Program-made: the position numbers and the translations under genes
Assembly (NCBI GenBank): GCA_963813535.1
Contig: CAWEZH010000001.1
Location: 145,093-209,092, forward strand
DNA from: an uncultured Chloroflexia bacterium
Lineage (GTDB): Bacteria; Chloroflexota; Limnocylindria; Limnocylindrales; CSP1-4
DNA: 64,000 nucleotides
Direction: 5' to 3'
Shown here: piece after piece, positions 38,877 to 63,142 of the stretch
How the letters are laid out: the number at the start of each line of letters is the position of its first letter
Position numbering within the stretch: position 1 is the first letter of the stretch
The notes under the pieces: model-generated
What the model was told of the DNA's origin: nothing
What the model saw: the letters and a program-made list of their open reading frames with translations, nothing else
Databases searched by the model: none

Positions 38877-40139
38877 CTAGGCGTGGTTCGCGGTCTCGCG
38901 CAGCAGTCGGGCGAAGAGGGCGCTGGCGATCGACATCATCGTGACGGCAAGGGCGATCCCGCCCAGAGAGCCGAGGTCAACGCCGGCAGCGTCGGCCGGC
39001 GACGCTGCCTCCGCGGCGCCATCCGCCGACGACGGCGCACGGTCCGTACCAGCGGCGGGTCGTCCGGTCGCGGTCCCGGCTCCGGAAGCGGCACCAGCAC
39101 CGGCAGCCGATGGCCCGGCCGCCACCACCTCGATCGTGCCGGTCATGTCGGGGTGCACCTGGCACAGATACGCGAACGTGCCCGGTGCGGCGAACGTGTA
39201 CTCGAAGGTCCCGCCCGTCTCGAGCGTGCCGCTGTCGAACGAGCCGTCCTTTGCAGTCGCGGTGTGAGGAGCGACGCCGGTGTTGGTCCACGTCACGGTC
39301 GTGCCGGTCGTGACCTGGACGTCGGCCGGCTCGAAGGCGAGGTCGATGATGTCAACGGCTGTGCTGCCGCTCGCCGGGACGGGAGTCGGCGCGGGGGTCG
39401 GCGGTGCGGGGTCGGGCGCCACGTTCGGATCGGGCTGACGTGCCTGACCAACCACCTCGATCGTGCCGCGCATCTCGGGGTGGAACATGCACAGGAAGGG
39501 GAAGCTGCCGGCATCCGCGAACGTCTTCTTGTAGGTAGCGCCCGTGCCGAGGACGCCACTATCGATGCCGCCGGTGCCGGCTGACGTCGCGGTGTGCTCG
39601 TCGCCGTCGAGGTTCTCGAACGTGACGGTGCCACCGACCGCGATCGTGGTCGTGCCGGGGTCGAAGGCTTCGTCGGCGATCGTCACGGTCGCGGTTGCCT
39701 TTGCGGCTCCGCCCGCGGTCGCGCTTCCGTTGGCGCCGCCGGACCCGCCGCTCGAACCGCCGGTGACGCGGATCCGGCCGAAGTAGCGAGCGTCGTCGTC
39801 CTCGCGCTCATCGATGTAGGTGAACGTCCCCACGGTCGACATCCGGACCTGGAAGGACTCACCCTCCTCGAGGTTGCCCGTGTCGAACCCGTCACCGCTT
39901 CGCGACCGCATCCGGTGGCGCTCGTCGTCGCGGTTGACGAAGCGAACGATCCCGCCCTTCGGCACGCTGACATCCCGATCACTCAGACCGTTGCGAAGCG
40001 TGATCGTGACGTCGGGCCTACCCGGCGCGGAATCGTCCGCCCGGACAGGGGCGACCGCCACGACCAGCATCTGGACGGCGACGGCGGACAGGGCAACGAG
40101 GGGCGCGAACGATCGACTTGGCATACCTCTTCGAGTCAT
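38877..40139 (-). CDS. Secreted, C-terminally anchored triple cupredoxin-domain protein
   Basis: Signal peptide; HTAT...CMFHPEM and HTAT...CQVHPDM type-1 Cu motifs; first domain degenerate; C-terminal TM. Confidence 0.85.
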   Translation of the reverse strand: MTRRGMPSRSFAPLVALSAVAVQMLVVAVAPVRADDSAPGRPDVTITLRNGLSDRDVSVPKGGIVRFVNRDDERHRMRSRSGDGFDTGNLEEGESFQVRMSTVGTFTYIDEREDDDARYFGRIRVTGGSSGGSGGANGSATAGGAAKATATVTIADEAFDPGTTTIAVGGTVTFENLDGDEHTATSAGTGGIDSGVLGTGATYKKTFADAGSFPFLCMFHPEMRGTIEVVGQARQPDPNVAPDPAPPTPAPTPVPASGSTAVDIIDLAFEPADVQVTTGTTVTWTNTGVAPHTATAKDGSFDSGTLETGGTFEYTFAAPGTFAYLCQVHPDMTGTIEVVAAGPSAAGAGAASGAGTATGRPAAGTDRAPSSADGAAEAASPADAAGVDLGSLGGIALAVTMMSIASALFARLLRETANHA

Positions 40140-40207
40140 GCCGCTCCGAAAAGGTTTCAGGCTCGAGATAACGCTCCGGTGAGTGGGCGGAGGCAGACTC
40201 GACCGTT

Positions 40208-40870
40208 ATGAGTACGCGCGAGCGTCCGATCGACCGCGGTCGGCGGATCGCATCGGCTGACCGGCACAGGATCGGGCAAGAGCTTCGGGTTTCGCGACTT
40301 GTCGCCGGGCGGTCGATGGCTTCGGTCGCCGTCTCGAGCGGTATGTCATCGTCGCAGGTGGGGCGGATCGAGCGAGGCACCCTCCCCGGCGTGAGCGTCG
40401 ACCAGCTGGCGAGAGTCGGGGCCGCCGTCGGACTCGATGTCCGTGTTCGGTCCTATCCGGGTCCGGATCCGCTCCTTGATGCAGGGCAGATCGCGGTTCT
40501 CGGTCGCCTTCGTTTGCGACTTCACCCAGATCTGGGCTTTCGAGCCGAGGTCCCACTCCCGATCACGGGTGATCAACGAGCTTGGGACGCGATGATCTAT
40601 GCCCTCCGTGGCATCGCACCGCTGCTTCCTGTCGAAGCCGAGTCGCGTCTGATCGATAGCCAGGCCCAGATTCGCCGGATCATGCTCAAGCTCCGCGATA
40701 GTGGCCTGGAGCACGTGCTGGTCGTTATCGCCGATACGCGGCGGAACCGGGACGCGGTCGCCGCGGCCGCCTCGACGATCCTGGCCGACTTCCCTGTTCC
40801 GCAGCGCCGCGCGATGGCAGCGCTCGCCGCTGGCGAGCATCCTGGCGGCTCGGCGCTGATCGTTCTCTAG
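40208..40870 (+). CDS. XRE-type HTH fused to a PD-(D/E)xK/DUF559-like nuclease-fold domain
   Basis: LRVSRLVAGRSMASVA...VGRIERG HTH, then RAEVPL...AWD...VEAES restriction-endonuclease-like motif. Confidence 0.7.
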   Translation: MSTRERPIDRGRRIASADRHRIGQELRVSRLVAGRSMASVAVSSGMSSSQVGRIERGTLPGVSVDQLARVGAAVGLDVRVRSYPGPDPLLDAGQIAVLGRLRLRLHPDLGFRAEVPLPITGDQRAWDAMIYALRGIAPLLPVEAESRLIDSQAQIRRIMLKLRDSGLEHVLVVIADTRRNRDAVAAAASTILADFPVPQRRAMAALAAGEHPGGSALIVL

Positions 40871-40882
40871 GTGCCTGGATCG

Positions 40883-41116
40883 TCGGTCATCGGGTGACCG
40901 AATGGGAGGACGAGCCGAGACCAGGGGCTTGCTCAGAGGACTCGCGGGCCGTCTCCGTCACGGGGTGACTGAACGGGCGGACGAGCAGTCGTTTTCGGGC
41001 AGATTCGGGACCGGCCGGGCCAATTCGTTCGTCGGTTCGGTCACGGGGTGACCGTCTTGGCACGTCGAGCCCAAGATCGGGCCGTTCATCCGTCGGTTCG
41101 GTCACGGGGTGACCGA
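40883..41116. repeat. Four ~34-bp palindromic repeat units (two forward, two inverted), REP/BIME-like
   Basis: Core GTCAC-GGG-GTGAC at 40957, 41040 and 41101, variant at 40886. Exact 25-mer CGTCGGTTCGGTCACGGGGTGACCG at 41030 and 41091. Units 1 and 2 are 27/34 identical. Confidence 0.9.
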
Positions 41117-41134
41117 GGTGGCAGTGGCGGGGAG

Positions 41135-43132
41135 CTAGTGGTGCCGCGTCGCCCAGGGTGGCGTCACGGCCGTGGGCATCCCCGGAGCGTGGGACGGCCG
41201 GTTCCGGTCCCGCGGCGAGCCCGGGAGCGGCGGGTTCCAACCTCCGACCTGCGCCTCGAGACTCGCCGCGGCGCCCAGACCCGCGGCCCCCGCTCCCTCC
41301 GATGCCGCCGGGGCATCGGAGGCGGCCTCCTGCTGGGCGGCGGGCGGCGGGACCCAGCCCTCGCCGATCTGCCGCTCGGGCGGCGCGAAGTCGCGGAACG
41401 GGATGATCTGCCGCTCGAACTTCTCGAGAAGCTCGGGATGCGCACGCTCGACCTCGCGGAACACCTCTTCGAGTTCGTCACCGATCAGCTCGTCGCGTTC
41501 GATCAAAGCCTTCGCAAGATGGTGGATCGCCGGTTCCTTCTCGCGCAGCAGGCGCTCGGTCTCGGCGTACAGCTCGTCGAGCATCTCGTGTGCGGCGACG
41601 ACGAACGGCGCCGGCGGCAGCTGACCCGGGATGACCGGGGCGATGATCTTCGTCGGTCCCATCGCGAACCGGGACACGTACATGACCGCGGCGTTGGTCG
41701 CCGCCTGCAGGTCGCTCGACGGCCCGGTCGACAGCGTGTCGAGGAACCGATCTTCTACCACGTGACCGGCCAGCGAGACCATGATCTGCGTCTCGATCCA
41801 GCGGGCGTACATCGACGTCCGCTCCTCGAGCGGCTTCTGCTGGACGTAGCCCAGCGCGTGGCCTCGCCGGATGATCGTCGCCTTGGAGATGCGATACGAG
41901 GGCCGGAGGTAGCGGGCCGCCACGGCGTGCCCGGACTCGTGGTACGCCGTCTCGCGGCGGTCGGTCAGGTTCCACGCACGGATCGGCTGCTTCAACCCGA
42001 GCGCCCGCTCGTCGGCGGCGTTCAACCAGTCCTTGTAGGTCAGGAACTCGCGGCCATCCTGGTGAGCGTGGATGAGGGCCTCGTTGATGATCGTCTTGAT
42101 CATGATCGGGGTCCAGCCCATCGAGTCGGTCAGCAAGAGGTCCATCGGGAGGTCCGGGTCGTGCTGCTTCTTCGAGAGGTAGTGCTCGATGATGTCGCGC
42201 CGACCCTCCAGGTCCGGCTCGTGGACGACGATCATCCGATCGAGTCGACCGGGCCGGATCAGGGCCGGATCGAGGACCTCGGGTCGGTTGGTGGCGCCGA
42301 TGACGAACACGAGTGGCTTGTCGTTGACCGGGCCGCGGATGAGGCCGAACCAGCGGAGGATCTTGTATCGCCAGCGGTCCTCGACCAGGCCGGCGAGCGA
42401 GTCCATCTGGTTGAGCAGGGTATTCAGGCCCTGGCCCCCGCCCATCATCATGCCGCCCATCATCATGCCGCCGCTGCTCTGGCCACCCCGGTTCATGCCG
42501 ATCGAGTCGATCTCGTCCATGAACACGATGCAGGCGCCTCGTTGACCGGGTGCGGCGTACTTCCGACCGAGCCCGCGGGCGTCGCGGAAGAGCTTCATGA
42601 TCATCATCTCGGTCATGCCCCAGAACATGCCGCGGATCGAGCTCGCATCGATGTAGATGAACGGCAGCTGGGCCTCGGCGGCGATGACCGCGGCGAGGAA
42701 CGTCTTGCCGGTTCCGGGGGAGCCCGAGAGCAGCATGCCGCGCGGCATCTCGCCGCCCCGCCGCTCGAACTCCCTCACGCCCTTCAGGATCCCGACGGTC
42801 ATCTTGGCGTGCTCGAGCAGGTCCGGCTGACCGCGATAGTCAGCGAACGACATCCCGATCTGCTGATCGTCCGGCGTGACCGTGTACTTGCGCGGTCGTG
42901 ACAGGAACCAGAACAGGAACCCGAACTGGACGATGAGGTAGAAGGCAGCAAAGGACAGCTGGAGGGCGAACGCCGGGACGGAGGCGATGATGCCGGCCAC
43001 GGACTGGAGGAACGCGACCGTGCCGCTCGAGGCGATGAGCGCCGTGACGATCGCCAGGACGATCAGCAGTCGGAAGAGGTTCCTGTTCCAGACGAAGCTG
43101 AGGTTGTTGAAGAACCCGCGAACTGCTGTCAT
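41135..43132 (-). CDS. FtsH-like AAA+ zinc metalloprotease (M41), divergent paralog
   Basis: Two N-terminal TMs, GSPGTGKT, VFMDEID, ATNRPEVLDPALIRPGRLDR, HESGH and GPSSD motifs. Confidence 0.92.
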   Translation of the reverse strand: MTAVRGFFNNLSFVWNRNLFRLLIVLAIVTALIASSGTVAFLQSVAGIIASVPAFALQLSFAAFYLIVQFGFLFWFLSRPRKYTVTPDDQQIGMSFADYRGQPDLLEHAKMTVGILKGVREFERRGGEMPRGMLLSGSPGTGKTFLAAVIAAEAQLPFIYIDASSIRGMFWGMTEMMIMKLFRDARGLGRKYAAPGQRGACIVFMDEIDSIGMNRGGQSSGGMMMGGMMMGGGQGLNTLLNQMDSLAGLVEDRWRYKILRWFGLIRGPVNDKPLVFVIGATNRPEVLDPALIRPGRLDRMIVVHEPDLEGRRDIIEHYLSKKQHDPDLPMDLLLTDSMGWTPIMIKTIINEALIHAHQDGREFLTYKDWLNAADERALGLKQPIRAWNLTDRRETAYHESGHAVAARYLRPSYRISKATIIRRGHALGYVQQKPLEERTSMYARWIETQIMVSLAGHVVEDRFLDTLSTGPSSDLQAATNAAVMYVSRFAMGPTKIIAPVIPGQLPPAPFVVAAHEMLDELYAETERLLREKEPAIHHLAKALIERDELIGDELEEVFREVERAHPELLEKFERQIIPFRDFAPPERQIGEGWVPPPAAQQEAASDAPAASEGAGAAGLGAAASLEAQVGGWNPPLPGSPRDRNRPSHAPGMPTAVTPPWATRHH

Positions 43133-62155: not shown

Positions 62156-63142
62156 ATGCGGGTCTTTGTTGCAGGCGCCGGCGGCGCCGTCGGAAAGCGG
62201 CTCGTGCCGATGCTGGTCGCTCGCGGTCACCAGGTGACCGGAACGGCCTCTCGACCCGAGTCGGCGGAGGCGATCCAACGACTCGGCGCGGAGCCGGTCG
62301 TCGTCGACGGGCTCGACGCCATCGGGATCGGCCAAGCCGTGGCCCGAGCCGAACCGGACGCGATCATCCACGAGATGACGGCTTTGTCGGGCTCACCCGA
62401 CTTCCGTCACTTCGACCGTTGGTTCGCGCTGACCAACCGGCTCCGGACCGAGGGAACGGACAACCTCCTCGCCGCCGCGAAGGCGAGCGGCGTCAAGCGT
62501 TTCATCGCCCAGAGCTTCACCGGCTGGAGCAACAGCCGCGAGGGTTCGTGGATCAAGACGGAGGACGACCCGCTGGATCCGCACCCGGTAAAGGAGCAGA
62601 CCGAGACGCTCGCGGCGATCAAGTATCTCGAGCGAGCGGTGCTCGAGGCGCCCCTGGAAGGGATCGTGGTCCGCTACGGCGGCCTCTACGGTCCGGGCTC
62701 GTCGGAGACGCTCGTCGAGATCCTGAACCGGAGGATGTTCCCGGTGATCGGCGATGGCGCCGGCGTGATCTCGTCGACCCACATCGACGATGCGGCCGGT
62801 GGGACGCTCGCAGCGCTCGAGCGAGGCCGTCGCGGTATCTACAACATCGTCGACGACGAGCCCGCGCCCTCTCGCGAGTTCATCCCGGCGATCGCCGAAG
62901 CGGTCGGCGCGAAGCCGCCGCTCCACATCCCCGCTTGGCTGGCCCGGCTGTTCGCGGGTGAGGTCGCGGTGACGATGATGACCGAGGGTCGAGGGTCGTC
63001 GAACGCCAAGGCGAAGCGCGAGCTCGGGTGGCAGCCGATCTGGCCAAGCTGGCGCGACGGCTTCCGGCACGGGCTCGATGCGCCGGTGCCGCTGCCGCCG
63101 CGCGCGCCCGACATCGACCATGAGGCATTCTCAGCAGCGTGA
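62156..63142 (+). CDS. NAD(P)-dependent epimerase/dehydratase (atypical SDR)
   Basis: VFVAGAGGAVG Rossmann motif, RYGGLYGPG, YNIVDDEP, SNAKAKRELGW. Confidence 0.9.
   Translation: MRVFVAGAGGAVGKRLVPMLVARGHQVTGTASRPESAEAIQRLGAEPVVVDGLDAIGIGQAVARAEPDAIIHEMTALSGSPDFRHFDRWFALTNRLRTEGTDNLLAAAKASGVKRFIAQSFTGWSNSREGSWIKTEDDPLDPHPVKEQTETLAAIKYLERAVLEAPLEGIVVRYGGLYGPGSSETLVEILNRRMFPVIGDGAGVISSTHIDDAAGGTLAALERGRRGIYNIVDDEPAPSREFIPAIAEAVGAKPPLHIPAWLARLFAGEVAVTMMTEGRGSSNAKAKRELGWQPIWPSWRDGFRHGLDAPVPLPPRAPDIDHEAFSAA

Follow-up and report, generated by a model that had tools for sequence, protein, structure and literature searches.

What connects a small DNA-binding gene with the array of palindromes that lies directly behind its stop codon? 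This question is raised by a locus in the window, a 64,000-nt stretch of DNA from an uncultured Chloroflexia bacterium (GCA_963813535.1, CAWEZH010000001.1), where a 220-aa open reading frame (ORF) that combines an XRE-type helix-turn-helix (HTH) with a domain modelling as a PD-(D/E)xK nuclease fold is followed by four palindromic units. With moderate confidence, we read the protein and this repeat family as a cognate pair, comparable to the pairing of repetitive extragenic palindromic (REP) sequences with RAYT transposases but involving an unrelated HTH-nuclease. A preliminary description of this DNA had already proposed a RAYT-analogous system that uses a PD-(D/E)xK-fold protein, and this proposal is supported by linkage, fold and dispersal; none of the three outcomes that it had listed as contrary was borne out. 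Few bacterial non-coding elements are as common as REP-type repeats and, to our knowledge, only RAYT tyrosine transposases have so far been tied to them. If the reading is correct, a second, unrelated enzyme type is partnered with its own palindromic repeats, which would indicate that such partnerships arose more than once, and a large uncultured soil and freshwater lineage is brought into the REP picture. In what follows G-numbers denote genomes (that of the window is G000), L-numbers denote homolog loci, and C2 and C3 denote contigs of G000 or of a relative. The gene and its array comprise the following features.

40208..40870, + strand: HTH-nuclease gene, a 220-aa ORF with an XRE HTH (~aa 17-85) and a predicted PD-(D/E)xK-fold domain (aa 88-220)
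40346..40372, + strand: recognition-helix codons, aa 47-55, SSSQVGRIE
40883..40913, + strand: palindromic unit 1, TCGGTCAT CGG GTGACCGA plus tail
40954..40984, + strand: palindromic unit 2, degenerate, TCCGTCAC GGG GTGACTGA plus tail
41025..41055, - strand: palindromic unit 3, inverted, with an exact 25-mer in common with unit 4
41055..41076, no strand assigned: spacer hairpin TCTTGG...CCAAGA between units 3 and 4, read from the sequence
41086..41116, - strand: palindromic unit 4, inverted, with the exact 25-mer in common with unit 3

Dispersal and species-specific amplification of the palindromic units

The array consists of four palindromic units of ~31 nt, each built as arm, ACSGGGY centre and arm', the first of which begins 12 bp past the stop codon of the gene. 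Their cores start at 40885, 40956, 41039 and 41100 and hence lie 71, 83 and 61 bp apart. This is the arrangement that the preliminary description had given, with four units right after the stop, two forward and two inverted, and we also recovered the exact 25-mer that it had noted in units 3 and 4 as well as the TCTTGG/CCAAGA hairpin in the spacer between them. In its consensus the tail, GAAC(G/C)G(G/A)CGGACGA, is only approximate across copies. Searching the 64-kb window for GGTCACNNNGTGACC at ≤1 mismatch yielded 4 matches relative to 0.32 expected, a number that was reached in 0 of 100 shuffles. Three of these matches lie within the array and the fourth, at 62225, is unrelated; unit 2 carries two mismatches to GGTCACNNNGTGACC and hence falls outside this count. 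No palindromic unit is present within 40140-40207, and the focal array sits downstream of the stop.

The repeat is not private to this locus. The genome-wide copy count that had been suggested with the preliminary description revealed 26 focal-type units in 7 intergenic arrays of G000, in both orientations, and the focal unit has 31 matches per strand at ≤2 mismatches relative to 1 for the reversed control. Based on crude ORF calls, three of the 7 arrays are located between convergent gene ends, two between divergent gene starts and two in other settings. None of the six arrays other than the focal one is near a paralog of the gene, and the spacer hairpin of the focal array is not seen in any of them. 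Two arrays (C2:1542869-1543127 and C3:44385-44715) are near-perfect 72-bp tandem repeats of 4 and 5 copies, respectively, and therefore suggest recent local expansion. Their 72-bp spacing also brought a CRISPR array into consideration, which was ruled out: a CRISPR array has repeats in one orientation separated by unique spacers, whereas here units occur in both orientations and the "spacers" of the 72-bp arrays are identical copies, the inter-unit sequence being itself repeated.

Amplification of the repeat differs between species. Pattern matches number 20/21 (forward/reverse) in G000, whereas each of 80 further genomes from the family has 0-5. Within the genus (61 genomes), at least 8 matches per strand are found only in G000, G017, G024, G500, G519, G527 and G015, with the G015 count (3/8) arising by cross-match of its GATC variant. 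That GATC variant is spread over ~9 places in G015, and the pattern GTGCCAC..GCGGCAC has 11/16 matches in G527 (4-5 loci) relative to ≤3, which is the control level, in four other genomes. Counts of the TCGAAC and GGATC patterns have a high background in all five genomes. Overall, amplification of a given repeat variant is seen in the genome whose protein matches it.

A genome-wide screen of G000 returned only two clear palindrome-array families, the focal one and TGGAACAT-N4-ATGTTCCA, each of which has a copy beside a paralog; the strict palindrome-array detector is insensitive, and noisy at two units. A perfect-stem hairpin screen was too noisy to discriminate, de novo k-mer inventories of dispersed repeats were swamped by coding-bias words, and a self-repeat scan in 300-nt windows did not have the focal array among its top windows.

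Enrichment beside family members, and co-variation of arms with the recognition helix

We analyzed the surroundings of homologs by measuring the fraction of each 300-nt flank that is covered by 12-mers recurring at ≤1 mismatch, direct or inverted, relative to 272 intergenic regions of G000 (an approximate background, with the crude ORF caller covering ~74% of this genome). For downstream flanks, 23 of 87 lie above the 95th percentile and 15 of 87 above the 99th; the corresponding numbers are 8 and 4 of 86 for upstream flanks and 0 of 89 for coding controls. As the loci are related by descent and the background was taken from a single genome with approximate gene calls, we read these figures as enrichment and not as a probability. 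When a strict self-repeat threshold is applied, 27 of 89 homolog loci pass on either flank, with more apparent by eye, and flanking palindrome arrays thus do occur at homologs, which is what the preliminary description had asked of them. Once the loci were oriented, the arrays seen by eye near many homologs proved in most cases to follow the gene directly, with one clade having them upstream instead. In G519 units are found on both sides of the gene, whereas the focal locus has them on one side only. G000 itself contains four copies of the gene, at 100, 45, 40 and 34% identity, and each of its three other paralogs adjoins a different palindrome. Specifically, TGGAACAT-N4-ATGTTCCA, a repeat with 21 units at 7 loci, lies upstream of the paralog at C2:247160; TTGCCG-N5-CGGCAA is present five times downstream of that at C2:838694; and GGTGCAC-N3-GTGCACC adjoins that at C2:1056185 and is also found at C2:266912/267059.

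The arms of the palindromes co-vary with the recognition helix of the adjoining protein. Four orthologs, those of G000, G508, G520 and G527, occupy the same site between a cupredoxin gene and an FtsH-like gene, are 67-72% identical pairwise, and each have an array before the FtsH-like stop.

G000: arms TCGGTC, 4 units, helix motif SSSQVG
G508: arms GGATC, 3 units, helix motif SGAQVA
G520: arms TCGAAC, 3 units, helix motif SGAHVG
G527: arms GTGCC, 8 units, helix motif SKSHAG

At other loci, the helices SPSQAS, SASQAG and SESQVG are accompanied by CGGTC arms (G519, G522 and L093/L102), SPAQAG by CGATC arms (G015), and SGAHVG by TCGAAC arms (L092/L101). Ser or Ala at position 3 of SxSQ tracks G or A at arm position -3, and Gln or His at position 4 tracks T versus A or C at arm position -2. 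When placed on a tree, the combination of Ser and Gln with GGTC is ancestral, Ser changed to Ala once or twice and Gln changed to His twice, each time with an arm change, which amounts to 3-4 joint changes. No uncoupled change of helix or arm is present among the rows compared on this tree, and within an array the arm change is found in all units, on both arms. An ortholog series with different helices and arms constitutes a directly testable DNA-recognition code, which could help in understanding the specificity of HTH-nucleases and perhaps in re-targeting it. In a separate clade with SYSQ/N helices (L010, L012, L103 and L127, all in one genomic context within the genus), GTGCAC and GGTCAC half-sites are mixed in all combinations, which a simple homodimer code does not explain.

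These results bear on the explanation that the units are generic repeats unlinked to the gene, spread by other machinery or by replication slippage in tolerant intergenic regions, with the correlations stemming from descent. Such repeats could account for the six of seven arrays that lie far from the gene, for arrays in G024 and G500 where no intact cognate gene was found, and for the many homolog loci without arrays. We nevertheless regard this explanation as quite improbable, given that flanks are enriched 5- to 17-fold over the intergenic background, that both clear array families of G000 have a copy beside a paralog, that four orthologs at one site have four arm types each matching the helix type, and that the matching variant is the amplified one. 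As to other machinery, a search for Y1_Tnp (PF01797, RAYT) found none in G000 (92.9% complete), with controls matching in 6 of 14 genomes. The preliminary description had itself named a generic dispersed element unlinked to the gene as the contrary case; of the two properties the repeat has the first, being dispersed, but not the second, since the arms track the helix among close relatives and the matching variant is amplified.

Gene and array are also present or absent together as one unit. The features that delimit this block in the window are as follows.

38877..40139, - strand: three-domain cupredoxin gene, left neighbour of the HTH-nuclease gene
40150..40160, no strand assigned: AAAGGTTTCAG motif that precedes the cupredoxin gene and marks the left edge of the block
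40161..41134, no strand assigned: gene-plus-array block, present or absent as one unit between the cupredoxin and FtsH-like genes
40161..40207, + strand: 5' region of the HTH-nuclease gene, containing GGTGAG (40178-40183) and CAGACT (40194-40199)
41135..43132, - strand: FtsH-like AAA/M41 gene, right neighbour of the HTH-nuclease gene

As stated in the preliminary description, the gene lies on the strand opposite to that of both neighbours, the ORF being on the + strand and the cupredoxin and FtsH-like genes both on the - strand. The block is present at the cupredoxin/FtsH site in G000, G527, G508 and G520. It is absent from G369, G523 and G020, where the two flanking genes adjoin directly, without the HTH-nuclease gene or the array, and the AAAGGTTTCAG motif is kept 0-40 bp from the FtsH-like stop; these are the empty ftsH-cupredoxin sites for which the preliminary description had proposed to look. 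The FtsH-like protein is 73-78% identical in the empty-site genomes versus 85-88% in the occupied ones, to which G520 with a broken gene is added, and a single gain or a single loss would account for this distribution. G024 and G532 instead have at this site a distant paralog with a canonical E-L-K and long inverted repeats of its own.

Arrays elsewhere turn over between close relatives. G000 and G024, which have flanks of 87-94% nucleotide identity, have 4 array sites in common with differing numbers of units, site D having one versus four. Two further sites are occupied in G024 only, and one of these is a 3-unit array located exactly between abutting convergent stop codons, at which no target-site duplication was seen.

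The predicted nuclease-fold protein and its possible action

The N-terminal part of the protein matches PF13560 (HTH_31) over aa 22-81 (E 1.7e-06; 28.7 bits relative to a curated cut-off of 27), which is the sole Pfam match, and the C-terminal two thirds match no named family in NCBIfam, PDB sequences, PADLOC or the ESM Atlas. An AlphaFold2 (AF2) model built from 62 homologs has a mean predicted local distance difference test score (pLDDT) of 95.3 and a predicted alpha-beta-beta-beta-alpha-beta core, formed by helix 88-104, strands 110-116, 125-131 and 139-145, helix 151-165 and strand 171-174. A wide structure search with VIA, which is independent of Foldseek and aligned aa ~90-220, matched this domain to AF1548 (1y88; Z 9.0, root-mean-square deviation (rmsd) 2.8, 101 aligned), XisH-like 2okf (Z 8.9, rmsd 2.9, 103 aligned), NucS (2vld; Z 8.3, rmsd 2.9, 96 aligned), Card1 (6wxw; Z 8.0, rmsd 3.1, 111 aligned) and Can2 (Z 7.4, rmsd 3.4, 112 aligned), where Z values of 8-9 are moderate and only moderately exceed the level that the tool calls common. 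Foldseek on the whole model returned mainly HTH proteins, and the nuclease fold surfaced in the VIA search only. Based on these predictions the C-terminal domain models as a PD-(D/E)xK nuclease fold. It resembles the AF1548, XisH, NucS, Card1 and Can2 nucleases in predicted fold and order of elements and in having acidic residues on strands 2 and 3, but it differs from them in having no sequence-level family match, a Glu at the Lys position and a fused N-terminal HTH. The preliminary description had named an XRE-HTH joined to a restriction-endonuclease fold; the HTH is borne out by the HTH_31 match and the nuclease fold by modelling, as a prediction from AF2 and VIA. The motifs RAEV, AWD and VEAE that it had read are all present in the translation, as is its Glu at the usual Lys position, which corresponds to Glu145 when aligned with a paralog that keeps D...E-L-K. 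Residues E114, D127, D150 and Q152 are invariant in the 62 homologs, and E143 and E145 are kept in ≥90%.

The protein is also predicted to form a homodimer, with a score of 0.81 relative to 0.00 for the best of 3 controls and an interface at aa 7-87; the runs agree in ≥90% of contacts and the partner has pLDDT ≥83. This mark is met by 20 of 30 proteins solved as one-chain pairs and by 1 of 23 solved as single chains, although the pass may reflect likeness because XRE dimers are common among solved structures. Among solved structures, the N-domain is most closely related to repressors and to controller proteins of restriction-modification (R-M) systems, such as C.AhdI (1y7y) and ClgR (3f51), with C.AhdI matching at E 0.0013 and VIA giving Z 10.0 and rmsd 1.7 over 64 aligned residues.

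Taken at the level of sequence, these features suggest that the protein binds its own units: a dimer would use its XRE HTH to read the outer arms of neighbouring units, which would represent a REP/BIME-like family (BIME, bacterial interspersed mosaic element) that has spread to other intergenic sites of G000. We tentatively, and with some doubt, go one step further and propose that this is an HTH-guided PD-(D/E)xK nuclease that recognises its own units and, by cutting, propagates or homogenises them, with several orthogonal protein/repeat pairs in each genome and a recognition code of two residues and two bases that would shift as the pairs diverge. The nuclease domain would nick or cut at or near the units, and such cutting could seed, expand or homogenise arrays, for example by break-induced copying.

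An ordinary XRE regulator would have several of the same properties, with the nuclease-fold domain serving to sense or oligomerise, the palindromes being operators, and the arrays being a regulon or roadblock/insulator sites. The relatives of the N-domain, the predicted dimer and its palindromic targets are what such repressors and C proteins have in common with this protein, co-variation of helix and arms is compatible with any role that involves binding, divergent gene starts flank two of the 7 arrays, and one paralog clade has units upstream of the gene. In contrast to these regulators, the protein has a fused nuclease-fold domain, its arrays are downstream and dispersed, and no restriction or methylase gene adjoins it among the neighbouring ORFs of the window. 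Operators of XRE regulators are found in the promoter of the regulated gene, whereas no unit is upstream here, though some paralog clades do have upstream units. Here and at most other loci the array is downstream of the stop, between convergent gene ends; unit numbers vary, and arrays appear and vanish between species that are 87-94% identical and include 72-bp tandem duplications. A regulator also leaves the species-specific amplification unexplained, and the acidic residues, invariant within the core of the nuclease fold, point to a metal site. We therefore consider a purely regulatory protein rather unlikely.

Several points weigh against a cognate pair that propagates by cutting. Co-variation reflects few independent events in a small sample, and part of the helix/arm correlation follows from descent because gene and array are inherited together. 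By the strict measure, 62 of 89 homolog loci (~70%) lack a strongly repetitive flank. The repeat totals only 26 units in G000, when REPINs number hundreds per genome, and the G520 units and the TTGCCG family are essentially confined to the flank of their own gene. G024 has units well preserved at 6-7 sites, yet no intact gene of the focal subclade was found there and its second copy has no in-frame N-terminus; similarly, G500 shows 9/8 matches, yet its assembly, which is 85% complete, yielded no more than a distant paralog. These two cases argue against strict dependence, or they represent recent loss or incomplete assemblies. As for the protein, the arms are spaced ~13 bp centre to centre, and HTH dimers typically use a shorter spacing. 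Finally, catalysis is uncertain because Glu145 occupies the position of the canonical Lys, in regard to which D/E/E variants do occur in active enzymes such as BamHI.

Relation to REP systems, folding of the array and the wider family

REPIN-RAYT systems are described as clustered and alternating palindromic units whose own RAYT gene is flanked by repeats of the family (PMC3116915, PMC3337134, 10.1101/2022.05.22.493013). The locus described here has the same properties in that palindromic units in alternating orientation are clustered in intergenic regions, and a low-copy gene is flanked by its own repeat family, with four units directly downstream. The repeat variants are likewise specific to the genome with the matching gene, and inheritance is largely vertical at conserved sites, with array turnover between related species. 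There are, however, several important differences. The protein has an HTH and a predicted PD-(D/E)xK fold, with HTH_31 as its only family match, and is not an HUH Y1 transposase; each genome has several paralog/repeat pairs at tens of copies rather than hundreds; and recognition is apparently by a helix that reads duplex DNA. In REP repeats, one end also bears a conserved tetranucleotide, GTAG or CGTC (PMC3733652). No conserved tag of this kind is found among the present units: CGTC can be seen in the tails of units 3 and 4, whereas arrays E and G lack it. Within the literature that is openly readable as full text, we found no description of an HTH plus PD-(D/E)xK protein partnered with repeats. 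This looks like a repeat-and-enzyme partnership on a protein type that was not previously known for it.

The array might alternatively act as RNA, either at the 3' end of the gene's mRNA or in a transcript of its own, serving as a stabiliser, attenuator or small-RNA precursor. The preliminary description had pointed out that, if transcribed, unit 2 could pair with unit 3 and unit 1 with unit 4, and the + strand of 40871-41134 does fold in this nested manner, with a minimum free energy of -130.6 kcal/mol and a z of -2.6 (2 of 200 shuffles were as good). Support for the RNA reading from this fold is weak. Inverted repeats will necessarily fold in such a manner, and z is only -1.74 for the - strand. 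A second indication comes from the inner arms of focal-family units in G000, G024, G017, G003, G519 and L093/L102, where only the strand with the GGG loop allows the variants CAT and CGT to pair with GTG through G.T; such G.T-compatible variants are observed in ~9 arrays versus 1 array with an A.C mismatch, a bias that may reflect selection or mutation operating on a single strand. On the other side, the array has no Rfam match at E up to 1, and a promoter/terminator scan found nothing in it. Moreover, all orientations with respect to neighbouring genes are represented among the arrays, some of which lie between divergent starts, and an RNA role leaves co-variation with a DNA-binding helix unexplained. 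The structured non-coding RNA that had been offered as an option thus retains its nested fold but lacks a known family, and we regard an RNA element as highly improbable. As to expression, public sequencing runs, which hold only small shares, contained no RNA contig over the array, and 151-nt metatranscriptome contigs match parts of the gene at 95-98% and cannot show transcription of this copy.

The cognate pairs that we propose belong to a protein family of restricted distribution. HMMER searches recovered 1317 cluster representatives at E ≤0.001 and 159 at 1e-30, almost all of ~217-220 aa, with named matches in metagenome-assembled genomes of Chloroflexota and Candidatus Limnocylindrales. 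Of 401 genomes of the phylum, 38 matched, including 22 of 23 from the family of the window and 15 of 16 from a second family of the same class, and no family member was found in the remaining Chloroflexota genomes of this set. The homologs in Actinomycetota that had been expected alongside those in Chloroflexota did not materialise, as no relatives outside one Chloroflexota class were present in the genomes searched. Matching genomes have from 1 to 7 or more copies. The close subclade of the focal protein (E ≤1e-62) is present in 7 of 31 sampled genomes of the window's genus and in none of the other sampled genera; a single-protein search for related loci returned few close relatives, and those within the genus occupy at least four further genomic contexts.

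Analysis of more distant paralogs revealed additional arrangements. A paralog type at ~28-34% identity (L073/G024, L075/G532 and G000 C2:1056185-1056796, which is L008) keeps the canonical D...E-L-K, and at L073 and L075 it is accompanied, 3' of the FtsH-like gene, by ~36-nt inverted repeats with GCCGCCTTATGGCGGC-like palindromes. In another paralog clade (L015, L016, L018, L025, L028, L031, L063 and L100) the gene is convergent with one whose 3' end resembles a sigma-70 C-terminus, and 3-6 TTGCRY-N3-RYGCAA units that are conserved across species lie in between. At L024 (G024 C3:880959), an ortholog of the C2:838694 paralog, the reading frame runs into downstream tandem repeats and acquires an Arg/Gly-rich repetitive tail, which probably represents read-through of the array and not real coding sequence.

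Two further observations concern the surroundings of the gene. The FtsH-like protein encoded at 41135-43132 on the - strand has a Gly/Met-rich insert (GGQSSGGMMMGGMMMGGGQG) within its AAA domain, and it matches the M41 peptidase profile in part only (residues 390-493). Finally, GGTRAG and CAGACT-like words are seen by eye 10-30 nt before the start codon in most homolog loci and across clades, and judging from their sequence they may represent a common promoter, from which a transcript with a short leader, or none, would be made.

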